The notes below the pieces were generated by a model. That model was not told the DNA's origin, made no database searches, and saw only the letters and a list, made by a program, of their open reading frames with translations. The position numbers and the translations under genes were made by a program. Shown one piece after another: positions 9,185 through 55,056 of a DNA stretch of 55,056 nt; the stretch's first letter is position 1; every line of letters starts with the position of its first letter. Origin of the DNA: Patescibacteria group bacterium. Its GTDB lineage: Bacteria > Patescibacteriota > Minisyncoccia > Phycocordibacterales > PALSA-1337. Location of the stretch: positions 130,640 through 185,695 of the forward strand of contig JAZKJN010000002.1 of assembly GCA_040384285.1 (NCBI GenBank), read 5' to 3'.

Positions 9185-9591
9185 GGGGATGAAAGGCCTC
9201 GACAGTTGAGGTACTTCCCTATGCGCATTGTAGAGCCCTACGGTCTCTTTAATCCCGTGGAAATCGTAACTGCACAATCAGCAATTACAAAAGTTAAGTC
9301 TTCTGTATCTCCATATTTTGGAGTGCAGGATCTTGCTTTCTCTTACGCTACGGTGTAAGTGACGCTCCGCACTTGGTGTCAAAATGAGTGTTGGAGTGAT
9401 ATAACCTTTGACTAGAAATTCAAGTCCCTTCCCTGCTTGAGTTTTGAAACTTCGGGAATCGCCTGCATATGTTTTGCAAACTTTAGAGTATGCAGGTTAA
9501 AAGAGGGCGACCTCGTGAAAGTCTGATATACAATGTAGAAGCGTAGTGAAACCTTATCTGCACGGCGGTTCAATTCCGCCCATCTCCACCA
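9185..9591 (+). ncRNA. ssrA: tmRNA (one-piece, 407 nt)
   Basis: 5' GGGGATG pairs with 3' CATCTCC-ACCA; T-arm GGCGG-TTCAATT-CCGCC; follows smpB; internal tag ORF present. Confidence 0.95.
9272..9358 (+). other. tmRNA tag reading frame AQSAITKVKSSVSPYFGVQDLAFSYATV*
   Basis: Resume context AATCGTAACT-GCA; 28 codons then TAA; hydrophobic C-terminus. The resume codon is inferred from the usual AACT-GCA context. Confidence 0.75.
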
Positions 9592-29972: not shown

Positions 29973-32957
29973 TCAGGGAATGACTGAATTGCTTTTTGGC
30001 CTAGTGATGTAAATACGAAGTCCTTGATCGTTGGCATCCCGCCAATCGGTTTCGCCGGAATCCACGCCGCCATTGCCGTTCCAGTCCTCCCAGTAGTCAG
30101 GAACGCCATCCCCGTCGTAATCGAGCGGAGTGCCATTGGCATCGGTGGCCACATAGTGAAAACCCATGTCCACCACGCTGTTGGTTTCCTTCACGTTGTT
30201 GGTCGTCATCGTAAAGTGATAAAGACCGGCGTTCGTGGCGTTACGGCTGCCGGCATTAAGCACGGCGAGATTGGTCGCCACGTAGTATTTGCCCAAAGCA
30301 CCCCGCTGGTAGGTGAGGTTGGTTAACAGCACATCGCTGCCCAAGGTGCCCGAGAGAACAGAATTGCTGTGATAGGCGTTGTGCGAGACCAAATTGCCGG
30401 AACTGGTCAACTGCGCCATCCGGTCAAAGAGGTTGTCCTGAATAGTCCAGTTGGTCGTGCCTCCAGTCACCGAGAGGTAGGATTCGACCATGGTGTTGTT
30501 GCGCACGTGGACGCGCGCGCCGGAACCCGAAGGCGCCGCCCAGATGCCACTGCGGTCGAAGATGTTGTTGGTCAGGGTGATGACTTGATTGGCGCTATCC
30601 CCCAGACCCATGCCCGCATAGTACAGGTCGCAGTGAGTCCATTCGAGGGTTTTCCACGAACCATAGCCATAGAACATGTAGCCGTCGTCGACCATGATGG
30701 CCAACTGGGTGAACCGGAAACGGGCCTGCGAATCTCCCTGCGTGGGATCGCCGGGTGCGTTGTCATAAAAGAGAGCGTAGCCGGCTCCAGCGTTTCCCCT
30801 CCAGGACTCTTGGACATTGTGCGCCCTCACGATGGCATTCATGGCCGTTGCAGAGCCCGAGGAAACGAATCCGCCGGAACTTAAAATAAAGCCAGCGGCA
30901 AAAAAATCTGAGTCGAGCACCGTGTAATCCACGCCTACGGCGACGCCGTTGGTCAGCGTGAGTACGGCGTTCGAACGAATGACGCAATGGCTCACGATGT
31001 AGTCGAGGGGTGCGTAATGGTAGCCGAGATCCGGAAGTCCTTGGTCGCGGTATAGAGGCGTCCAAGTGGCGTCGGTCGTGATGGCATTGGTGAAGAAAAT
31101 CGGTGCATAGGTTGTAGAGCGCGTTATTTCCGTTCGCAGCGCGGACACGATGTTGGTGGTGCCGGCATCCCGCAGAGCGCTAGAGTCGGCGAGGTAGTAG
31201 TGCCCACCCACACTCACCTGGAAATCCGACAGACTGGCCGGCACATTGCCACTCCCGCCCGGAATGGCTGGGGTTCCGTTGGTTCCCAAGTAGCTTCCGA
31301 GAACATTGTTCGTAGAACCGCTTACGTTGACCAGAATGCTGTTGGTCAACGTCAAACGACCGGGTGAGCCGGAAAGCTGGGCTAATGAACTCACCCCATG
31401 AGCTGTGACATGCTGGGCATTAATGACGGTGTTGTCGCCCACGAACAGGTTCACCACGTTGGTGGCAAGGATGTTGTGGACAAAATTAGTGCCACCGTTG
31501 CTGCGCCGGATGGCGTTAGAGCAGTTCATGAACTGCAGGTTATAAAAGCGCTCGGTGCTGCCCTCCCAGTCAATGGCGGTCTGCGCGAAGTTGAAACGCA
31601 AGTCATGCAACTCGCCTGTGACCGTGGTTGAGGCCCGCAGGGCAGTCCGAGCGTAGTAAGAACCAACGGGCCCCGTGAAATCCGGGAAGAACTGGCCTGC
31701 ATCATCTATGGCCGTGAAGATCGCCGGACGATAGGGCGTCGTATCGCAAACCACGGCGCCGTTGAGGGAAATGTACGGGTTGGAGGCAGTGGCATAGTAA
31801 TAAACCACAGCCCCGCCCTTGATCGTGGTGGTGCCATACATTTGAACCGGCCCCGTGATGGTGTAGCTAGCTCCCGGCTCGAAGGTGTAATTGGTTTTCC
31901 CGGAAGTGAGTGTCATGTTGTAGTCGATGACCACGCCTGGCTGTTTCTGAAGTTGCGCCGTCTGCCGCGTCGGAATTGGTCTGGCTTGGGCGCGCTGACT
32001 CGGGGCCTTCGGAAATGAGCGCCCAACCACTTTCCGTCCCGGCGCAGTGGGCAAGGCCGCTCTTTGAAAACCGTTGCTCGGCCTTGCTTGGGCTCGCCTC
32101 CCAGCAGGCAAAGTCTGAAGAGCCGGTTGCAACGCCGGAATTTCCACGGCCTCGATGAGCACCGAACGGCCGTTCAACACCTCCCAGCTTTTCCCGACCG
32201 CAATGTCAAACGAACCGTCCAAAGCAAAGGCCCGTCCTTCGCCGATTTTCATGGCCCCAAAGTGCAGTGTTTGGTCCGCGAAATCCGGGAGCGCCATCAC
32301 TTGGCGCAACGCAGGATTCTCCTCTGCGCGAAGCAGTTTGGTGGTTACGCTTCCTTCCGGAGCGTTCACATATTCCGTCAGCACCTCCAGCCGGGTGGTT
32401 TCAGGGTTCAGTCCGAATCCGGCCGGTGAAGGGAGTTGCTCCCGCAGAATGATGTCCTGTTCAAAGCCATCGCGACGATAAGTGTAGCGAACATCGGCCT
32501 GAAGATCAGTAAACGCATCTGCGTAAAGAATTTGATTGGGAGGCAGGATTTGCCCCGTGGAATCCTTGACGGCTGCGATGAGCACGCTTTCGCCCGTGCC
32601 TGCGTCGGTGTAGGCCAACCCCAACACATGACTGGTGAATTGTTGGCCGTTCTCATCCAACAGTTGGATCGCTCCGTAGGTGTTCAAGTTGGCGGCGAAA
32701 GTGACCTTGTGGGGACCGTAGGAGGCGGCGGCACCTCCAGGAGCCGCTTCAATCACTTCCCGCGTTTCGATCCACGCTTCCCCGCTGCGATAATGCAGGC
32801 CGGTGGCCAGTTCCACTTTCCGTGCCTGCGCCCCTGCCTGTCCTCCGCCCACGACCGTGGTCCGGTGATGTGGACCCCGTTCAAGAACGGGTTCTGCTGC
32901 CCTTACGCCAAATACTCCGAGCATCGTAAACAGAAACCATGCGTGCTGTATTTTCAT
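29973..32957 (-). CDS. Large secreted protein: conserved N-terminal domain, parallel beta-helix repeats, C-terminal DxDGDG Ca-binding motifs
   Basis: Signal peptide; Asn/Thr-rich beta-helix-like repeats; DYDGDGVPDYWEDWNGNG. Confidence 0.8.
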   Translation of the reverse strand: MKIQHAWFLFTMLGVFGVRAAEPVLERGPHHRTTVVGGGQAGAQARKVELATGLHYRSGEAWIETREVIEAAPGGAAASYGPHKVTFAANLNTYGAIQLLDENGQQFTSHVLGLAYTDAGTGESVLIAAVKDSTGQILPPNQILYADAFTDLQADVRYTYRRDGFEQDIILREQLPSPAGFGLNPETTRLEVLTEYVNAPEGSVTTKLLRAEENPALRQVMALPDFADQTLHFGAMKIGEGRAFALDGSFDIAVGKSWEVLNGRSVLIEAVEIPALQPALQTLPAGRRAQARPSNGFQRAALPTAPGRKVVGRSFPKAPSQRAQARPIPTRQTAQLQKQPGVVIDYNMTLTSGKTNYTFEPGASYTITGPVQMYGTTTIKGGAVVYYYATASNPYISLNGAVVCDTTPYRPAIFTAIDDAGQFFPDFTGPVGSYYARTALRASTTVTGELHDLRFNFAQTAIDWEGSTERFYNLQFMNCSNAIRRSNGGTNFVHNILATNVVNLFVGDNTVINAQHVTAHGVSSLAQLSGSPGRLTLTNSILVNVSGSTNNVLGSYLGTNGTPAIPGGSGNVPASLSDFQVSVGGHYYLADSSALRDAGTTNIVSALRTEITRSTTYAPIFFTNAITTDATWTPLYRDQGLPDLGYHYAPLDYIVSHCVIRSNAVLTLTNGVAVGVDYTVLDSDFFAAGFILSSGGFVSSGSATAMNAIVRAHNVQESWRGNAGAGYALFYDNAPGDPTQGDSQARFRFTQLAIMVDDGYMFYGYGSWKTLEWTHCDLYYAGMGLGDSANQVITLTNNIFDRSGIWAAPSGSGARVHVRNNTMVESYLSVTGGTTNWTIQDNLFDRMAQLTSSGNLVSHNAYHSNSVLSGTLGSDVLLTNLTYQRGALGKYYVATNLAVLNAGSRNATNAGLYHFTMTTNNVKETNSVVDMGFHYVATDANGTPLDYDGDGVPDYWEDWNGNGGVDSGETDWRDANDQGLRIYITRPKSNSVIP

Positions 32958-42356: not shown

Positions 42357-44099
42357 CTAACGAATGCGTCGCTTCACCGACGGGGGTGCTGCAATAAACT
42401 CGTCGAGATGCTTGGTGGAAAAACTTGCCGCTGTTTCGGCAAGTTGCTTCTGCGCCTTGGCGCGAGGCATGGCAAACGGAAGCTTCTCGTAGCAGCGTTC
42501 AAGAAACTTCTGCGTGCGTTCCTTAGACGCAGGAGTTTTTTCAACGGTCGGTGTGTAAATGGATACAGGGGCATTCATCCCGACGAGTCGCGCCACTCCC
42601 TGCCGCTGCTTCTGGTCAAAAAGGACGGCCATCGCACGAAACAATTGTTCGTCGAGCGAGCGAAACTGCACATGAGACAATTCTTTCCCAAACACTGGAA
42701 TGAGCGTCGGAACCAGGCTGCGCGACTCGCTCACGCTCTCAGACCATGAGTCGCTTTCACTCTCAGATTCAGACTGAAATACACTCTGCGATTCACTCGT
42801 GCTGAGTGTTTCAACTCCGTCGAAAAATCCTGCCGTGCCGCCGATGCCGGCACCACCTGCTAGGCCCCGCTGAGAACCGCGGCTTTGGCCAGATGACCGG
42901 CTTTCGGAAATCACTTCCTTTAGCTCCTCGCGGTAGGACATCACCTTGGTCGAATACAGTTCGTGTTTGATCTGCTCCGGGTCCATCACGCCCATGAAAA
43001 GCCACTGCGCCATCATTCGCAGGTTTTCTTCGTAGGAAAGTCGGAAAGCTACTTTGCTCGAAGCATTTTCCATCACGGAGGTAAATACCCGCCGTCCGTT
43101 TTCATTTTCATCAATCAACTGGAGCGGAAATTGATTTGCCATCGTGAGGTGGAGGCCAAAGCCGCGCGCCTGATCGAGGTTTTTGGAAATTGTCGGGGTG
43201 ATAAATTCCTGGAACTCGTCGAGGTAGACGTAGAAGGGTTTTACATTGTCCCGCTTCCCGCGTTCCTTCGCGGCAATCCAAAGGTCGCTGAACATAAGGG
43301 TGGCAAAAAGTTTCGCATTATCCGGCGACACTTTGGCGCCCTCAGTCGCCAGATTTACCAAAATGATTGAGCCCTCCTCCAATGCGTTCCCCAAATCCAT
43401 CGATACGGTGGGTTGGCCAAGCATTGAACGGATGAGTTCGTTGCCGATGAAGGGCCGCAGCCGGTTCACCGTGCTTCCGATTTGCGTCTCAAAATCCTTG
43501 GCACTGAGAGTGTCCGCAAATTCCCAATCTTGGCGCGAAGGCTTGTTTCGCAAGTCATGCGTCAGTGCGTAACGGGCTTGTTTGCCTACGCGGTCGATCA
43601 AATGTTCAGCGTCGATGAGAGTGAGTTTCTTTTCGTAAAGTGCTCTAAGCACATTTCCAACCCACCGTGCAAACAGGGGCGTCTGGCTAGTTCCGGTCTG
43701 ACCCCAAACATACGCCATCGCATCCGTGAGATTGTCGACCAAAACCGCAGGGTCTGCCTGGCTGCGTTGCCGAAGCAAGTTGTACGAGACAACCCAGTCA
43801 TCTCTTCGCAAATCAATTGGGACAATGGGAACTTTGAGCGCATCTTCGTTCCATGCCATCCACTCCATGAGGTTGTCGTAAAGGTTGCCATGCGGGTCGA
43901 AGAGAATCAGTCCGCAACGGGTTTTGTGCCATTGCTTGATGTCCTGACGAATTAGGTGTTCAAGAAATTTGCTTTTGCCAGTTCCCGTGCCTCCACAGAC
44001 GTAGAGGTGTTTGTCGCGCTCGATGCGGGAAAAGGAAAGCGAAGCGTTTCTGCCGGGAAGCAGACCCAGATCGAGATCGTTGCCAGGTTGCGATGGCAT
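42357..44099 (-). CDS. VirD4/TraD-like coupling ATPase, copy 2
   Basis: HLYVCGGTGTGKS, FDPHG, VYLDEFQE, ARGFGLHLTMANQ; Ser/Glu-rich insert. Confidence 0.9.
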   Translation of the reverse strand: MPSQPGNDLDLGLLPGRNASLSFSRIERDKHLYVCGGTGTGKSKFLEHLIRQDIKQWHKTRCGLILFDPHGNLYDNLMEWMAWNEDALKVPIVPIDLRRDDWVVSYNLLRQRSQADPAVLVDNLTDAMAYVWGQTGTSQTPLFARWVGNVLRALYEKKLTLIDAEHLIDRVGKQARYALTHDLRNKPSRQDWEFADTLSAKDFETQIGSTVNRLRPFIGNELIRSMLGQPTVSMDLGNALEEGSIILVNLATEGAKVSPDNAKLFATLMFSDLWIAAKERGKRDNVKPFYVYLDEFQEFITPTISKNLDQARGFGLHLTMANQFPLQLIDENENGRRVFTSVMENASSKVAFRLSYEENLRMMAQWLFMGVMDPEQIKHELYSTKVMSYREELKEVISESRSSGQSRGSQRGLAGGAGIGGTAGFFDGVETLSTSESQSVFQSESESESDSWSESVSESRSLVPTLIPVFGKELSHVQFRSLDEQLFRAMAVLFDQKQRQGVARLVGMNAPVSIYTPTVEKTPASKERTQKFLERCYEKLPFAMPRAKAQKQLAETAASFSTKHLDEFIAAPPSVKRRIR

Positions 44100-47276: not shown

Positions 47277-47379
47277 TCCCCTTGGGGAGGAATCCGGCAG
47301 GGGGTCGGAGACGCCCCTCGGTCAGCCATCGCACGCACGAAAAAGCCCCGCCTTCATGCCGGGCAGTTCCGAGACTGAA
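47277..47379. repeat. ~100-bp imperfect direct repeat, copy 1 (contains a minus-strand terminator)
   Basis: ggggaggaatccggcagggggtcggagacgcccctcggtcagcca..gcac.cacgaaaaagccccgc...agactgaa is shared with 50711-50822. Confidence 0.85.
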
Positions 47380-47405: not shown

Positions 47406-48116
47406 TTATTTTCTCTTAGGACTGCACAGCACTGTGTAGGTCAGAAACAACTCGCCTCGCAGCACTTTCAACTTTTTCAGCTTAAGCCTGATCGCACCTC
47501 TGATCGATTTCACGCCCTCCCCATCACAAAATGTTGGAGCGTGGCTTCCGCACAGCACCAGAGGACAGATGGTCAAACGCACTTCGTCAACGACACCCGC
47601 TTGCAGAAGTGCCGCATTTGTTTTCCCTCCGCCTTCGCACAGGAGTCGTTTGATTTTCAGTTCACGGCGCAACCATCGAAATGCGCTCGGGAAACTCAGT
47701 TTCTTTCTTCCAAAAGCTTTTACGGTTGCTAAGCCCTTCAATCGGGTGGAGCACTTTCTGAATGCCTTTTCCGTTGTGAGAACTATCACTGGTGATGCGC
47801 ACTTGTGAAAAATTTCAGCGTGCGGATCGATATTGCCATCCTCACACCCCAAGACCCGCAAGGGCTCTGACGAAAGCCCGCGCTTTAGGCGTTGCTTGCG
47901 CCTCGCATTTGAACCGGGGCCGAGATCGAGTGAGAAAGCTTTAACCGTGTTTGCGCCACAAAGAACGGCATCGGCAGTCGCACGAAGTTGCAGAACGAAT
48001 TGTTGGTCGCGAGCACTGCTGAACTGGATCACCGTGCGATTCTCCAAAGCCAACTTTCCATCTGCCGACACGGCACCATTCATAAATACAAACGGCAGAA
48101 CATGTTGGCGAGACAT
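47406..48116 (-). CDS. RibD C-terminal-like reductase (DHFR fold), stand-alone
   Basis: MNGAVSADGKLA, LRATADAVLCGANTV, RLLCEGGGKTNAALLQAGVVDEVRLTICP. Confidence 0.9.
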   Translation of the reverse strand: MSRQHVLPFVFMNGAVSADGKLALENRTVIQFSSARDQQFVLQLRATADAVLCGANTVKAFSLDLGPGSNARRKQRLKRGLSSEPLRVLGCEDGNIDPHAEIFHKCASPVIVLTTEKAFRKCSTRLKGLATVKAFGRKKLSFPSAFRWLRRELKIKRLLCEGGGKTNAALLQAGVVDEVRLTICPLVLCGSHAPTFCDGEGVKSIRGAIRLKLKKLKVLRGELFLTYTVLCSPKRK

Positions 48117-48268
48117 TGAGTGACGTCACTGTAGCCTCCGATAGAGCAACGACAATTCAATTTGCCCTTCGATTACCTCTCCTGGGTTGGAACACCCTTC
48201 CGTTGGCGAGTTATGGCAAAAACAGGGTGAAAAACCTGTGAAGAAGTGTGAACAAAATAATCTTGCCC

Positions 48269-48316
48269 CCGCAAGCTGTAGTGCGAACATCGTCACACCT
48301 CAACTAGATGTTGTGG
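48269..48316. promoter_or_regulatory. Tandem NrdR-box-like operators, 32 bp apart
   Basis: ccgCAAgcTgTAGtgc (48269-48284) and caaCTAgATgTTGtgg (48301-48316) versus consensus acaCwAtATaTwGtg. Confidence 0.55.
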
Positions 48317-48317
48317 G

Positions 48318-48492
48318 TCAACGGCCTCTGTGAAGCTGTTGAATTCTGCACGGCGACGAGGCAAGCCCGCCGCCGTGCAGGTTAAACGGGTCAGCGTGAG
48401 CCAACCGCGTCTGGACAACAAAGGTTAGGCTCACGCTCGACCCTTCAACAATAAAAAGTTGCTCACATTCGGTATGGCTTGCCGGTGAGCAA
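48318..48492 (+). ncRNA. Candidate structured RNA / 5' leader of the lamin-tail gene
   Basis: Stems 48346-48355/48371-48380 (10 bp), 48388-48406/48423-48443 (~19 bp, 2 bulges), 48337-48343/48444-48450, 48459-48466/48485-48492, and an alternative stem 48318-48325/48335-48342. Strand is inferred from the downstream gene. Confidence 0.5.
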
Positions 48493-48506
48493 GTGGAGAA
48501 CAGTCC

Positions 48507-49025
48507 ATGAACAACTCATTGTTCATTCATCGGGCCAAGCCTAATCCGCTTGGCAAAGACACGGCTCAACACATTCCTAAGCCAGAACAGTTGCTGGGCG
48601 AATGGGTTGATCTGGTCAACAACAGTAACGCGGGCATAAACCTTGGAAATTACTCCTTGGCTAACCTGCAATTCGATTCGCGGTGCGCCCCAGTCGGGCC
48701 GCCGCAAATCTACTGGTCAGGAGACGCGGCAATAACACTGGGACCGGGGCAAATAGTCCGTATCCATACAGGACGGGCCGCCGATTGGTGGGTGGCTCAT
48801 CAAGAGGACAAAACTGGAGTTCATTACCACTCCTGTGCCGAGCGCGGCTCATTCGTACTCAATAACCGCTGTGGCGACACAGTGAGTATCTGGACGAAGG
48901 ACCGGCTGGGGAATTGGCAGAACGTCGATATTGCTTCGTACGATCCCAATCCGCCCGAAGGTGCCATACTTGAACGGTCGGGTAGCAAGTTGGTTGTAGG
49001 TGTTCGTTCTAGGCTCTACGCCTAG
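48507..49025 (+). CDS. Lamin-tail-domain (LTD)-like protein
   Basis: GEWVDLVN...INLGNYSL, ITLGPGQIVRIHTG, VLNNRCGDTVSI; GGAGA RBS. Confidence 0.75.
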   Translation: MNNSLFIHRAKPNPLGKDTAQHIPKPEQLLGEWVDLVNNSNAGINLGNYSLANLQFDSRCAPVGPPQIYWSGDAAITLGPGQIVRIHTGRAADWWVAHQEDKTGVHYHSCAERGSFVLNNRCGDTVSIWTKDRLGNWQNVDIASYDPNPPEGAILERSGSKLVVGVRSRLYA

Positions 49026-49207
49026 TCCACGGTTCCTCTTCGAACAGGAGAGCCACTTCGGTGGCTCTCCCTTTTTGTCTTGGTAATTGGGAAAGCCTTT
49101 GTCGGACTCCGCTTGCGCTGAAATGGCTCGGTTCAATCGCTCGTTAATGACGAAGCATGTCAGTTTTAGGGAAACATGCAGTATTGCCATAGAAACTAAA
49201 GTTTGTA

Positions 49208-49501
49208 GTGTCGGTCATGCAAAAGGCCGCGCGATTCATCGTGATAGCTGCGCTTTGTTTGGTCGCGACCGTCAACCAGCTCTATGCTGACTCCATCGCG
49301 ATTTCCTCAAGCAGTAGCGCAAATAGCGCCATCAATTTTGGCTCTCCCCCTTCGGAGTCCAACAACGATGTTCTGATTGCTGTCGTAAGCGGAATGTTCG
49401 GCCTTGCAGGAGTAGTCCTCACCGCCTTTATCGCTCAAAATCGTAAATCGCGTACCGGCGCTCGCTCGCGCAATGCAAAAGCGCGTGGAAAATCTGACTG
49501 A
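49208..49501 (+). CDS. Small exported/membrane protein (97 aa)
   Basis: Signal-like N-terminus, Ser-rich linker, TM, basic tail. Confidence 0.55.
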   Translation: MSVMQKAARFIVIAALCLVATVNQLYADSIAISSSSSANSAINFGSPPSESNNDVLIAVVSGMFGLAGVVLTAFIAQNRKSRTGARSRNAKARGKSD

Positions 49502-49579: not shown

Positions 49580-50422
49580 ATGATCTCCATCAAACTTAAG
49601 AAAGTTTCACTGATAGCTTTCTCGCTGATGAGTGGAGTATTGTCAGCACAATCTGAGGTAACTCTCGCAACTCTCCGGGCAGAGATTCAGGGAACTTTGC
49701 GTGCCTACTCCGATCCAGCGTCGGAGTTAAAAACCACCCTCACACTTCTTACCAACGACGTCTTGATTATCGAAACAACGAAAATTGAGGCCCGGAATCA
49801 GGTGACGGAATATCGGCTGCTCGATTTAGGCTCCGGCAGACGTGTAGCTATGACGCTTGGAGGCAAGCGTGCAGTGGAACTACACATCGAAGCAGTTGAT
49901 CGCAACGTAATGACAACAGGGTATTCAGTTCAAAGAGGGAAAACTAATCAACTGACAAGAACGCAATTGCAAGAGCTCCAGTTTAATTTCAAACCTGCTC
50001 AAGCTCTGTACGCCAGCCAATGCGCGGAGCTCTGGAAGGAGCTCTTCGAGAAAGTTGGCTTGGAGGTAAGATTTTTTGATGAAATCCCGGCAGAACCGCC
50101 CGTGGATCGAATCCCGCGCTCTTCTCCACCGGTCCGGTCGCCGAGGTCAAATCCGCCCTCAAGCGAAGAAGAGGCGTCGGTATTTGTCACCGTGGAAAAA
50201 GAGCAAATAACAGGCGCCACGTTTGTAGGATTCAACCATTTCATAAGAAACAAGCACAAGAGCAAAGCAATTCAAGTACGAGTGCTTGGATCGACCACAG
50301 GGAGCGGTTATGTAGATCCCAGTCCCAAAGTTGTGGTCGTTCAACCACAGGATAGAGTGTCCTTGGGCACGACTGATGCGTTTGTTACTTACAAAATTCT
50401 CCACTCGGAGTTTAGAAATTGA
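49580..50422 (+). CDS. Exported two-domain hypothetical protein (280 aa)
   Basis: Signal peptide (..VLSA-Q); Pro-rich linker between two beta-rich domains. Confidence 0.7.
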   Translation: MISIKLKKVSLIAFSLMSGVLSAQSEVTLATLRAEIQGTLRAYSDPASELKTTLTLLTNDVLIIETTKIEARNQVTEYRLLDLGSGRRVAMTLGGKRAVELHIEAVDRNVMTTGYSVQRGKTNQLTRTQLQELQFNFKPAQALYASQCAELWKELFEKVGLEVRFFDEIPAEPPVDRIPRSSPPVRSPRSNPPSSEEEASVFVTVEKEQITGATFVGFNHFIRNKHKSKAIQVRVLGSTTGSGYVDPSPKVVVVQPQDRVSLGTTDAFVTYKILHSEFRN

Positions 50423-50710: not shown

Positions 50711-50822
50711 TCCCCCTGGGGGAGGAATCCGGCAGGGGGCAGGGGGTCGGGGACGCCCCTCGGTCAGCCAACGCACACACGAAAAAGCCCCGCTTCGCAG
50801 CGGGGCGATTTCGCAGACTGAA
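50711..50822. repeat. ~110-bp imperfect direct repeat, copy 2 (minus-strand terminator GCCCCGCT-GCGA-AGCGGGGC-TTTTT)
   Basis: Aligns with 47277-47379; has an extra CAGGGGG duplication. Confidence 0.85.
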
Positions 50823-51798: not shown

Positions 51799-52533
51799 CT
51801 ACACCCTTTGCGGTGGGGCCACGGAGTCGAAATTTGCGCGGACGAGATCAACCACTCCTTGCATACAAATGTTCCAGTGCTTGGCTAACGCTTGATAAAC
51901 CACATCTACGTCTGTCGGTTTGCATGGTGATCCTCCAGTCTTTGCGAATGGGCCGTCAGATTCTACCAAGACCCGGTCGGGGGGCGTGCATTCCAAAATT
52001 CGTTTTCCCTTAGCAGTGCATAGCATCGCTGGATTGATTGAAACAAAATGACCATCGGAAATTACTTCAAGAAGAACTTTCTCAGTTCCTGTGAACCAAT
52101 GGAATACGGACTTTCTGATTTTGTGGCGTCGAAGCGCCTCCATAACCGCACTCTCAGCCCCTCGGCTGTGCAACGTGATAAATCGTGGACGATCATTGAG
52201 GGCGCAAAGAACCTCCTCGAAAACACGCACTTGAATGGGCTTCGATGCCAGTCCTTGCCGCGAGAAATCGAGGCCGATTTCCCCAATGAAGTGAGAGTAA
52301 GGCGCCATCTGCTTAAATGCGCCCAGTTCGCGGATGCCTTCAGCCGCGAAGAGTGGATGCATCCCCAAAGCCGGAGATACAAGTTTGTGCCCGCAGAGCC
52401 TGTCGGCAGCGACTGCGAAGTGCGAAGGAAGATTCGTGACAGCAACGACTCGTATCGCGCTCCTCTCACACTCCCGGATCACTTCTTCGGGCGAAGGAAA
52501 CTGGTCAATGTGACAGTGTGTGTCGATCAGCAT
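51799..52533 (-). CDS. qatD: QatD, TatD-family nuclease
   Basis: IDTHCH, ALGMHP, IGEIGLD, TLHSRG, VFHWFTG, VESDGP; last gene of a qat-type operon. Confidence 0.9.
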   Translation of the reverse strand: MLIDTHCHIDQFPSPEEVIRECERSAIRVVAVTNLPSHFAVAADRLCGHKLVSPALGMHPLFAAEGIRELGAFKQMAPYSHFIGEIGLDFSRQGLASKPIQVRVFEEVLCALNDRPRFITLHSRGAESAVMEALRRHKIRKSVFHWFTGTEKVLLEVISDGHFVSINPAMLCTAKGKRILECTPPDRVLVESDGPFAKTGGSPCKPTDVDVVYQALAKHWNICMQGVVDLVRANFDSVAPPQRV

Positions 52534-53864
52534 GCTCTAACTTCGTTCTTCAAATACGCCGAGCCGCTTGCTTTTAACCAAGTGAGCACTTCGGCACGCA
52601 TTCGTTTAACCAAATCCACGTACAACGTAAGCTGGTCTAGTGGCAGTGAACCATTTCCGAGAAGGCCGGCAGCAATCTCTCGATCGGGTGGGTTTCGTCG
52701 TACGAACGTCAGGAGAGCTAAAACATCCAAGGGAGTGCTACTGAGGGAAGTGATTGCCTCAATCCGCTTGCCATACGCCTCATCGTCCCGACCGCTGCTG
52801 TGCAGTGAAGCCCGACGAAAAAGGCAAGGGATGCAAACGCCGCAAGATCGGGCCTTTCGATCACTCCATGCCTCGCGGTGGTTTGCTTTTGCGCACGAAC
52901 GAGATAACGCATAGGTGTCGTTCAGGAAAGTTTGATCCTGGCACTCGTCAACCATTTCGCCTTTTGTTTTCAGCTCGTATGGATTTTGGACGGGATTCAA
53001 AATATTCACCCGTTCTAAGATACGATTAAGGTCCGCAATAAAATGGGGGTGAACCGTTCGGGTGCTACAGGAGCCACGGCGCGCAGGGGTAAGGGGAAAA
53101 TTTAAGGCGATAGGACCGTTCTCGGGAATTAAAATAGGTATTCGTTCTCCGAGAAGTTCCCCAAAGTAACAACCAAGCGCGACGAAGAGTAGTGAACGGC
53201 TGCGAAAATTAGTGTCCGCGCTACCCGATGAAAGTCCAACCTGAGTTTGAGCCAATTCAAATCGCCCGTTAAATTTCAAGCGCACGGCGTCTTCTAAAGC
53301 TCGCTGATCCACGCCTGGACCTGAGACGTGCCTGTCATAGTGCCCAACTAAAAGTAATTTTTCGCTGGGATTTTCGGTGAGCCAGTCCACTGCTCCGATG
53401 AAGGAATCCAACCCTCCTGAGAAGAGGCAAACAGCTTCACCAGTGGCACGCTTAAACTTAACGCTGCGCTGTCTGGGCTTCTTTTGAACTAAACGCTTCT
53501 CACCGTGCCTGAAAGTGATTTCCCAACGATCGCCAGTTAAGAAGCTGATACAGTCCGATAGGTCATTAACGACATTGGTCCAAGTGCCCACATGCTCGAC
53601 AGGAATTTCGATGGCTAGGTGTCGGGTCCACTTATCTTCCGCTCCATCCCTTGGCACCGCTTTGTCCGCAGCGTAGACGCACGAGGCAATGCACAGAAAA
53701 TCCTGAGCTAGGTCCGGCACGGTCCGCGATACTTTAAGAAGCGCGGTCGCATCTACATCGAGAACAACGTTTTCGGTTTGTCCGTCGAAATGGAGAGCAA
53801 GCTTGGCGGTCTCTTTCCTGAAATCAGCCTCCGGCGCGATCGTTATGGTGATGTCTTTTCTCAT
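52527..53864 (-). CDS. qatC: QatC, QueC-like protein
   Basis: LFSGGLDS, RSRSLLF, PENGPIALN, TKGEM, SCAK...CGVCIPCLFRR. Confidence 0.92.
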   Translation of the reverse strand: MRKDITITIAPEADFRKETAKLALHFDGQTENVVLDVDATALLKVSRTVPDLAQDFLCIASCVYAADKAVPRDGAEDKWTRHLAIEIPVEHVGTWTNVVNDLSDCISFLTGDRWEITFRHGEKRLVQKKPRQRSVKFKRATGEAVCLFSGGLDSFIGAVDWLTENPSEKLLLVGHYDRHVSGPGVDQRALEDAVRLKFNGRFELAQTQVGLSSGSADTNFRSRSLLFVALGCYFGELLGERIPILIPENGPIALNFPLTPARRGSCSTRTVHPHFIADLNRILERVNILNPVQNPYELKTKGEMVDECQDQTFLNDTYALSRSCAKANHREAWSDRKARSCGVCIPCLFRRASLHSSGRDDEAYGKRIEAITSLSSTPLDVLALLTFVRRNPPDREIAAGLLGNGSLPLDQLTLYVDLVKRMRAEVLTWLKASGSAYLKNEVRAC

Positions 53865-54667
53865 AGCTGCTCTCCGAAGATCTCAATCGTGTCCGCGACG
53901 ATACCGTCCACAATCGCTGCCCCGCTAACGCCATTCCAATCCACAGATGAAAGTTTATGCGACGCTTGCAGTCCGCCGATTTTTGCATTGATGAAATCTC
54001 GAATCTGGCCAGCCATGCTATTAGCTTTTTCAAAGCCGTGGGTGGCTAGGACGCCCTGATAACCGACGGTCTTGAAAACCTCGAAAATGTAATGCCCGAA
54101 AAAGTCATGAAGCGCGCCTTCAATATTTTGGGCGATGTTTGTTACCGACTCGATCAAACCATTGATTCCTTGCACGCCCTCTGACCATTTGAGAACCATT
54201 TCCATGAGGGCACCACGCAGCGCGGTTTGCTCAATCAGGCTCGCAGGACCGCCAAGCAGATCAGCTAGTGCCAGCGCGATTTCATCCGGGGTCTTGCCGG
54301 TCAAATCGGTCAATCCACGCTCGGCAAGCGCCTCACGAAATCCTTTAGTTCCAACATCTGCGAGAAAGCCGCCGACTCCGCGTGCAACAGTACGCGCAGA
54401 TCCAGCAATCCGGCGGGTTCCGCCGCCACCTCCTCCCCCGCCGACACCGGATCCACTTCCGCCTGAGGTAGCGGTTGAATTTCTTCCCTGAGGAGAAAGG
54501 GGCGTTCCGAAACCTAGTTGTGAAGCCCTCGCCATCTGCGCGACAAAGCCACTGACAACCGACGCGGCTTTCTGGGGCGTGACATGCCCTGCGCCTCCTG
54601 CTCGGGTAGCTTCATTTTTTGCGGGACTCCAGTTTGGCGAGCCCGAGTAATTAGTTGACGTGCCCAT
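53861..54667 (-). CDS. qatB: QatB
   Basis: N-terminal MGTS, Gly-rich segment, helical body; sits between the ATPase and QatC with an ATGA overlap. Confidence 0.85.
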   Translation of the reverse strand: MGTSTNYSGSPNWSPAKNEATRAGGAGHVTPQKAASVVSGFVAQMARASQLGFGTPLSPQGRNSTATSGGSGSGVGGGGGGGGTRRIAGSARTVARGVGGFLADVGTKGFREALAERGLTDLTGKTPDEIALALADLLGGPASLIEQTALRGALMEMVLKWSEGVQGINGLIESVTNIAQNIEGALHDFFGHYIFEVFKTVGYQGVLATHGFEKANSMAGQIRDFINAKIGGLQASHKLSSVDWNGVSGAAIVDGIVADTIEIFGEQL

Positions 54668-54670
54668 AGG

Positions 54671-55056
54671 TCATCTTTGTTTCTGTTTGAGCGCTTTGCC
54701 GAAGAGCGTTTTGTTGTCTTCAGCAAAATCGTTCGTGATCGCCCGACATGCTTCTCCCAGTGCGTTCGGCTTCGTCGCTAGCGATTGAATCTCTATAGCC
54801 AGTGCTGGTGGTAGTTCAGCTCTTGGAATTCTGGCAACAAGCGCTCGAAAGCTCTCAGCAGCGCTCCCGTCAATAGTTGCTATCTCGGTCAGCGCACGAA
54901 ACGGTTTAATTTGATTTGGTTTTTGTTGCGCGTGCGAAATGAGCAATTGAGCCAAACTCGCGCGCTCCAATGGCTGAAGCCTCGAAATTTCTTTTCGCGC
55001 AGCGACGTCGCCCATGTCACTCAGTAACTTCTTGAAAATTTCACGCACGATGGTTG
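54671..55056 (-). CDS. qatA: QatA (KAP-family ATPase), C-terminal fragment; gene starts beyond the window
   Basis: Frame open to the window edge, stop 3 nt before qatB. The call rests on operon position; the ATPase motifs are outside the window. Confidence 0.7.
   Translation of the reverse strand, partial: TIVREIFKKLLSDMGDVAARKEISRLQPLERASLAQLLISHAQQKPNQIKPFRALTEIATIDGSAAESFRALVARIPRAELPPALAIEIQSLATKPNALGEACRAITNDFAEDNKTLFGKALKQKQR

Follow-up and report, generated by a model that had tools for sequence, protein, structure and literature searches.

A putative cis-regulatory leader RNA family upstream of standalone lamin-tail-domain genes in Bacteria

We analyzed a 55,056-nucleotide stretch of the genome of a Patescibacteria group bacterium (assembly GCA_040384285.1, contig JAZKJN010000002.1; the whole stretch is referred to as the window), in which a 390-bp intergenic gap lies between a gene for a small lamin-tail-domain (LTD) protein and a divergently transcribed reductase gene. 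Our analyses confirm that a conserved, co-varying, sense-strand structured RNA exists immediately upstream of the LTD gene. We consider it probable (roughly 0.6) that the core of this leader (positions 48342-48492) represents a family of cis-regulatory leader RNAs that is new to Rfam and that is tied to the LTD protein family. The gap houses all of the features listed in an earlier reading of the letters alone (the sequence-only reading): two NrdR-like boxes 32 bp apart, one exact and one with a single mismatch, followed by strong stems, two of them mutually exclusive, and a last hairpin before the GGAGA ribosome-binding site. All of these are present as that reading described them. The leader and the start of its gene comprise the following features, where MFE denotes minimum free energy.

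48298-48316, + strand: hairpin P0, CC-CAAC uagau GUUG-GG, which includes box 2 (MFE fold)
48318-48342, + strand: hairpin P0', stem 48318-25/48335-42 (fold)
48337-48343, + strand: 5' arm of a closing stem (48337-43/48444-50), 7 bp, 100% complementary, specific to the window
48346-48380, + strand: hairpin A, 13-bp GC-rich stem 48346-58/48368-80 (92% complementary), with GGCAAGCC in its loop (48359-48367)
48388-48443, + strand: hairpin B, core GGGUCAGCG-UGAGCC ... GACAAC ... UUAG-GCUCA-CGCUCGACCC (fold and complementarity)
48459-48492, + strand: hairpin C, 8-bp stem UUGCUCAC/GUGAGCAA with arms 48459-66/48485-92, ending 2 nt 5' of the Shine-Dalgarno (SD) sequence
48495-48499, + strand: SD sequence GGAGA, with the start codon ATG at 48507-48509
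48507-49025, + strand: gene for a 172-amino-acid standalone LTD protein

Conservation and covariation of the leader

The arrangement of hairpins A, B, and C followed by the start codon was identified upstream of LTD genes at approximately 40 of 89 loci (first at L001, L002, L015, and L016; loci are designated by L numbers), the LTD homologs being 40-74% identical. Carriers of the leader belong to the Blastocatellia, Verrucomicrobia, and Kiritimatiellia or are unassigned metagenome contigs, and their LTD-only genes encode proteins of ~165-175 amino acids. The sequence of hairpin B is retained across phyla (GG.CAGC..GAGCU ... (G)ACAAC ... UYUUAGCUCA..GCUG.CC), with columns CAG, GC, and TAGC.CA invariant over 19 leaders. 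Its most conserved nucleotides lie within the Watson-Crick helices H1 and H2 (GC in 19/19 and CG in 19/19 leaders), not in junctions. Hairpins A and C are conserved in shape and not in sequence.

Covariation was evaluated for 19 leaders aligned by plain MAFFT, and the structure of A and B was supplied by hand, since RNAalifold retrieved these two hairpins just partially from MAFFT alignments, in which hairpin C and the loops were misplaced. With this structure, 86.6% of cells were paired compared to 77.4% in shuffles and 21-46% in controls in which the structure was slid along the alignment. Changes on both sides were observed in 18 of the 30 A and B pairs, against 7.2 +/- 1.7 in shuffles, and none of 500 shuffles reached as high a count; in helix A, both sides changed at 12/12 pairs (alignment A5). 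U-G pairs are frequent (e.g., UG in 11 sequences at columns 63/117). Most rows of a broader MAFFT seed (A8) had hairpin A out of register, so that a single model was used.

A covariance model (R1) constructed from 16 leaders, with the window's clade left out, matched the window at 48342-48452 on the + strand only (27.7 bits, E = 7e-6 over the whole window). When applied to 93 loci, R1 yielded 30 + strand matches, and scores on the - strand were always far lower (e.g., 116 versus 19 bits at L060). This asymmetry, together with the U-G pairs, suggests an RNA that is read in the sense of the gene. R1 misses L001, L002, L015, L016, L027, and L097, and these six leaders were assigned by eye and by folding; the lack of R1 matches in the ten genomes behind L001-L010 is uninformative, as the model is blind to their variants. 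Profiles (nhmmer) of the three closest leaders found no match outside their own subclade because the primary sequence of the leader is too divergent. Within the window, a weak second R1 match was detected at 32049-32133 (+) (15.5 bits, E = 0.018 for the window alone) that involves the outer stems only; it lies inside an RHS region and is probably due to chance.

The 261-nt leader of the window folds with an MFE of -111 kcal/mol, compared to -80.6 +/- 5.0 kcal/mol in dinucleotide shuffles (z = -6.0; 0 of 200 shuffles as good). Taken with the covariation, this excludes a chance origin of the hairpins. Upstream of the core, the arms of P0 vary at the same site among relatives, being CACAAC/GTTGTG in L016 and L117, CTACC/GGTAG in L015, and CTCCTA/TAGGGG, with a U-G pair, in L103 and L118, and the position of P0' in L015, L016, and L117 is taken by a hairpin of unrelated sequence. 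P0' and the closing stem overlap at 48337-42 and are therefore mutually exclusive, with the MFE fold keeping the hairpin. The sequence-only reading had seen a switch in this pair. No stem closing A and B was found in 24 other leaders (flank complementarity of 2.9 in cognate and 3.0 in non-cognate combinations); the switch was rejected accordingly, and the closing stem is treated here as a presumably fortuitous match. A 25-codon frame that starts with ATG extends from P0 to hairpin A (48309-48386, +); it is probably not a leader peptide because L117 has no ATG there.

Screening of the window against Rfam 15 (4227 families) returned best scores of 14-18 bits (E >= 2), all to unrelated eukaryotic or viral families. 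Among 24 relatives, 16 had no match at the gathering score and 8 had no match inside the motif at E <= 1. The suggestion of the sequence-only reading that a new RNA of cis-regulatory type is located here thus agrees with a family that shows conservation, covariation, and strand specificity and has no counterpart in Rfam.

Pairing between the loops of hairpins A and C

In the window, GGCAAGCC in loop A (48360-48367) and GGCUUGCC in loop C (48476-48483) are perfectly complementary. Loops A and C (given in that order) are also complementary at the following loci.

L015, L016, L117: GACAGG(U) / CCUGUC
L001: GUAGCC / GGCUAC
L002, L030: GAUAGCC / GGCUAUC
L027: GUUGCCC / GGGCAAC
L036: GCCGAGCC / GGCUCGGC
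L039: CGGCAGCC / GGCUGCCG
L097: GUCGCCC / GGGCGAC
L053: GUAGACA / UGUCUAC

The loop-loop helix is 6-8 bp in length, and its sequence changes between loci (11 or more loci). Complementarity averaged 7.1 bp between cognate loops and 3.8 bp between non-cognate loops, and none of 20,000 permutations reached the observed sum. Among loci that were retrieved later, those with a canonical hairpin B also pair (UGUAGC/GCUACG in L103 and L118; GUCGCC/GGCGAC in L106), and L104 and L105 have altogether different leaders. Only the test restricted to the loops is informative, as region-wide complementarity of A to C (85 nt versus 54 nt) was too noisy (6.0 versus 5.7).

The downstream protein and its linkage to the leader

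The 172-amino-acid protein encoded downstream of the leader matches PF00932 with E = 1.3e-7 and 32.4 bits, just below the gathering score of 34.3, and PF00932 is among the precomputed annotations of many of its close relatives. An AlphaFold2 model based on a 20-sequence alignment had a mean confidence (pLDDT) of 89.2, and the top 15 Foldseek matches in the PDB were the immunoglobulin (Ig)-fold domains of lamins A/C, B1, and B2 (probability of 1.0, E of ~2e-4, TM-score of 0.4-0.5 on query length). The model therefore points to a lamin-tail-domain protein with an Ig-like fold. It has in common with LTD (PF00932) proteins and the lamin A/C and B Ig-fold domains (PDB 1IFR, 3UMN, 2LLL) the Ig-like beta sandwich and the N-terminal signature NPxGxD...EW[VI]EL.N, but it differs from them in being a standalone, cytoplasmic protein of ~170 amino acids with insertions and with invariant His, Cys, and Asp residues of its own. 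In bacteria, LTDs usually occur as parts of secreted nucleases or of surface proteins. The protein of the window lacks a signal peptide. Proteins of 160-185 amino acids that match it over their full length number at least 155; named sources include Verrucomicrobia, Kiritimatiellia, and one Paceibacterota bin, with a second branch in Blastocatellia/Acidobacteria.

In the searches conducted here, the leader was linked exclusively to LTD genes. A motif-first search of 401 Acidobacteriota genomes with R1 returned one match, and this was located 62 nt 5' of a gene for a 169-amino-acid LTD protein. When IMG/VR was searched with a pattern based on hairpin B's conserved 3' strand, one match likewise resulted, which lies within a coding region and is rejected by the model. 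A survey of the literature on the lamin tail domain in connection with an RNA motif, a riboswitch, or defence found nothing relevant.

Two further observations concern the upstream side of these loci. A conserved protein of 124-141 amino acids is encoded on the same strand just 5' of the motif in L001 (2452-2826), L002 (2431-2856), L105 (3393-3818), L030, L031, and L099; it is 43-49% identical between loci and has no Pfam or PADLOC match, and no homolog was found in the genome of the window. At L021, L025, L040, and L088, the LTD gene has no leader motif and directly follows a small open reading frame (ORF) ending in ...GRDG.IRDKDS.G.D..PP.D..., which may be DUF2188-like.

Proposed mode of action

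We propose that the family consists of a variable, GC-rich hairpin A, a long conserved hairpin B, an A-rich linker, and a hairpin C that abuts the ribosome-binding site. Hairpin B, in which the sequences of the helices, of the UU(A)G bulge, and of the apical loop of the GACAAC type are retained across phyla, would serve as the recognition module for a trans-acting effector. In the branch that includes the window, the A-C loop helix would connect the leader's 5' end with the hairpin adjoining the SD sequence and AUG, and the A-C pairing together with hairpin C would act as the output, controlling access of the 30S subunit. For Blastocatellia leaders, CCUU flanking hairpin C would pair with AAGG of the SD sequence. 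From this arrangement we infer that the leader is transcribed and acts in cis at the level of translation initiation, possibly also on mRNA stability.

In leaders of the Blastocatellia branch, pairing is indeed possible between AAGG of the SD sequence and CCUU located 5' of hairpin C; for hairpin C and this anti-SD pairing, 86.8% of cells are paired. At L074 and L084, which belong to this branch, a promoter (TTGACA-N17-TAnGAT) is located ~20 nt 5' of hairpin A, which suggests that the motif there lies at the 5' end of the mRNA.

Several observations weigh against a cis-regulatory leader family of this kind. Approximately half of the 89 LTD loci carry other upstream regions, and the loci of the loop-pairing test were initially chosen by eye. 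The Blastocatellia branch has no A-C loop pairing, and its hairpin C and anti-SD pairing show conservation but, the sequences being too similar, little covariation. Within the window, sequestration of the SD sequence is not clear, the sole helix touching it being a 4-bp UGGA/UCCA; the leader's own promoter is not identifiable, a scan for sigma-70 sites having found none; and none of the RNA runs checked for the region contained it. Finally, conservation of the helices of hairpin B fits recognition by a protein but identifies no effector. DNA contigs from four runs that were compared with the region added nothing decisive.

Because the best-conserved nucleotides of hairpin B sit inside helices, our tentative best guess is that the effector would be a protein, with feedback by the LTD protein as the simplest case, and we favour this over a small molecule. 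The leader would then resemble autoregulatory and orphan leaders (ribosomal-protein leaders, the thrS operator, and the orphan candidates of Weinberg and Breaker), with which it has in common a multi-hairpin 5' untranslated region (UTR) that ends at the SD sequence, co-varying stems, a pseudoknot-like pairing over a long range, and one dedicated downstream gene family. It differs from these in having no sequence or structure match in Rfam 15 and in that the gene downstream encodes an uncharacterized LTD-only protein of defence islands.

A small-molecule riboswitch, in which hairpin B and the A-C loop pairing would form the aptamer for a metabolite or a signalling nucleotide and the ligand would alter ribosome access, would also account for a conserved, co-varying fold in which distant loops form a helix and nucleotides of bulges and loops are retained, for its position immediately 5' of the SD sequence, and for its occurrence in several phyla with a single dedicated downstream gene family. 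We nevertheless regard it as unlikely: the most conserved nucleotides are in the H1/H2 helices of B rather than in junctions, the leader contains neither an alternative terminator/anti-terminator nor an SD-sequestering switch that is conserved across clades, and the downstream gene offers no metabolic clue. Kissing aptamers of the purine riboswitch type also have hairpins around a junction with pairing distal loops, but here 6-8 freely co-varying Watson-Crick pairs join the first and last hairpins across a 55-nt hairpin, and the loop-loop helix is missing in one branch of the family.

NrdR-like boxes upstream of the leader

The sequence-only reading had attributed control of the cassette to NrdR, which would repress or derepress it according to deoxynucleoside triphosphate (dNTP)/ATP status, with the RNA as a second layer. 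The boxes on which this rests, and their counterparts in relatives, are listed below.

48272-48281, + strand: box 1 CAAGCTGTAG, one mismatch to CWANATNTWG; its 16-mer CCGCAAGCTGTAGTGC matches the NrdR consensus at 10/16 positions
48304-48313, + strand: box 2 CTAGATGTTG, exact match to CWANATNTWG; 11/16 against the NrdR consensus
L015: box 1 GCACTACATATAGTGT 14/16; box 2 11/16
L016: box 1 10/16; box 2 11/16
L117: box 1 10/16; box 2 10/16

The consensus (acaCwAtATaTwGtgt), reportedly that of Rodionov and Gelfand (2005), was checked against a single genuine pair of sites only, which is located 5' of the ribonucleotide reductase (RNR) gene of a Pirellulaceae genome (L115) and scores 13/16 each at a spacing of 31 bp. 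The box 1 of L015 is as NrdR-like as these genuine boxes, and those of the window are weak. Matches to CWANATNTWG occur in the window at background level (6 exact versus 2.7 expected; 65 versus 55 with one mismatch). An exact site with a partner of at most one mismatch at 31-32 bp occurs in 1.3% of simulated windows, and 16-mers scoring at least 10/16 are found at just 0.26% of window positions. Pure chance, to which the background frequency, the simulation, and the lack of NrdR would point, was rejected as the explanation of the boxes because the three nearest relatives with enough upstream DNA (L015, L016, and L117) carry the same pair, spaced 31-32 bp and equally far from the start codon. 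The two boxes are thus, as far as these sequences indicate, a conserved feature of the window's subclade, although the four leaders are alignable orthologs, so that the recurrence partly reflects common descent. Boxes are missing from most of the leader's other clades, and six other leaders (L001, L002, L027, L036, L053, and L097) have none.

No NrdR (TIGR00244: zinc ribbon and ATP-cone) was detected in the genome of the window, which is 97% complete, nor above the cut-off in 30 relatives of the host, and positive controls were matched in 9 known genomes. The left end of the window is core chromosome of the host genus (see below). Since NrdR is not encoded, dNTP sensing via NrdR cannot, judging from the genome, operate in this host. 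There is likewise no nrd gene in the neighborhood of the cassette, as the sequence-only reading had stated, and the sole RNR-like gene of the genome (C2:26098-27708) is far from the window. NrdR is, however, encoded in 11/11 tested LTD-carrying genomes of other phyla, such that a link to NrdR in donor lineages is possible. Against such a link, box 2 comprises the loop and 3' arm of P0, the arms of which co-vary between relatives; this is the behaviour of an RNA rather than of a fixed operator. Compared to NrdR operators, which are tandem 16-bp boxes 31-32 bp apart (center to center) 5' of nrd genes, the window shares a pair of imperfect palindromes, spaced 32 bp, that have C-w-A...T-w-G cores and lie close to a likely promoter, but here there is neither an nrd gene nor a host NrdR, the boxes match at 10-11/16 only, and box 2 doubles as a co-varying RNA hairpin. 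Collectively, the box pair stands as a conserved element of the window's subclade, and NrdR control of the cassette is improbable and at best ancestral. Box 1 might have been inherited as an operator from a donor that encoded NrdR.

A tentative promoter might be formed by TTGCCC (48264-69) and GAACAT (48285-90), in which case box 1 could occupy the promoter spacer. A short hairpin, CTTGCccccGCAAG, is located at 48262-48275 and overlaps box 1, and its continuation on the minus strand, ATTATTTTGT, is terminator-like. The block GTGAAYAAA(T)AATC(C)TTGYC around this hairpin is kept in L117.

Genomic context

The left 9 kb of the window is core chromosome of the host genus (genomes of ~0.6-0.8 Mb, GC of 44%), and, of 20 further genomes searched within the genus, most contain a gene with 80-87% identity to one at the left end, so that the assignment of the host holds. 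From ~9.4 kb on, directly after a transfer-messenger RNA (tmRNA) gene, the GC content climbs from ~44-46% to 52-56% and remains so past the right end of the window into the next contig of the scaffold. This rise indicates an integrated element, and the cassette is thus part of a ~60-kb element integrated at tmRNA in a ~0.78-Mb genome. Given its gene for a coupling protein, the element is probably conjugative. The main features around the leader and its gene are as follows.

9185-9591: tmRNA gene
42357-44099, - strand: TraG/TrwB-type coupling protein gene (PF10412, PF12696; PADLOC mad8-like)
47406-48116, - strand: RibD_C gene, a dihydrofolate reductase (DHFR)-fold reductase (PF01872, E = 3.5e-35)
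49047-49080, + strand: intrinsic terminator 3' of the LTD gene, a 10-bp stem followed by CTTTTTGTCT
51799-52533, - strand: QatD/TatD DNase (PADLOC)
52527-53864, - strand: QatC/QueC-like gene (PADLOC)
53861-54667, - strand: QatB (PADLOC)
54671-55054+, - strand: the next ORF after QatB, presumably QatA, its start broken by the contig end

Because the terminator directly follows the LTD gene, we propose that the transcription unit would comprise one leader (48298-48506 as the 5' UTR), one gene, and one terminator. The divergent gene is the DHFR-fold reductase recognized in the sequence-only reading; its adjacency to the cassette is particular to the window, and the contexts of the other loci differ. 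Direct repeats of ~95 bp (47278-47371 and 50713-50813; 84-96% identical), each with a terminator-like GC hairpin, were observed, and they flank a 3.4-kb block that consists of RibD_C, the leader and LTD gene, and two small genes (49208-49501 and 49580-50422) with hydrophobic N-termini and no Pfam match. Neither the LTD and RibD_C genes nor the two small genes had a match in PADLOC-DB v2.

QatBCD, which with the presumed QatA makes up a QatABCD-type defence operon, is located 2.8 kb downstream of the LTD cassette. Among relatives, the LTD gene neighbors a type I restriction-modification system in L097, a PycTM-domain gene and an AAA_15 ATPase in L098, and a methyltransferase, a ResIII helicase, a zeta-like kinase, and an MNT-type nucleotidyltransferase in L099. 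These gene contents suggest that the neighborhood of the LTD family is a defence island, in line with the phage or defence setting surmised in the sequence-only reading; the context does not indicate function.

Strict linkage to one small protein family in defence islands, and conserved helices that suit recognition by a protein, could also be explained if the RNA were a stable non-coding partner that binds or antagonizes the LTD protein, like retron RNAs or the RNAs of type III toxin-antitoxin systems. This is quite improbable, as hairpin C always adjoins the start codon, the neighborhood has no conserved partner of the reverse transcriptase or nuclease kind, and, unlike in type III toxin-antitoxin systems, the leader has no tandem or processing repeats and no terminator between the RNA and the gene. 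That the hairpins act at the level of DNA (as an operator, recombination site, or single-strand promoter of a conjugative element) or are fortuitous GC-rich palindromes is very improbable, since, despite the location of the cassette on an integrative, probably conjugative element and between direct repeats, model scores are strongly strand-asymmetric, the U-G pairs would read as A-C mismatches on the opposite strand, the majority of carriers reside at chromosomal loci that lack transfer genes, the hairpins keep a fixed position with respect to the start codon, and z = -6.0 with covariation excludes chance.

A more far-reaching scenario, which we consider doubtful, is that the leader would be a riboswitch-like sensor RNA for a nucleotide-type signal or a phage-derived factor and would switch on a standalone LTD-fold effector. 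The cassette would then be a self-contained, horizontally mobile one-gene module of defence or counter-defence against phages, in one subclade also responsive to dNTP status via operators of the NrdR type.

Implications

If a cis-regulatory leader family is indeed tied to LTD genes, a broadly distributed structured RNA, present in Acidobacteriota, in Verrucomicrobiota/Kiritimatiellia, and in an island of a small-genome bacterium, would join the short list of orphan leader RNAs. Its freely co-varying loop-loop helix of 6-8 bp is of a rare kind and would simplify tests by compensatory mutation. The finding also draws attention to cytoplasmic LTD-only proteins of ~170 amino acids that recur among restriction-modification, Qat, Pycsar-like, and toxin genes, and this family would provide a concrete handle on the intracellular role of bacterial lamin-tail domains.

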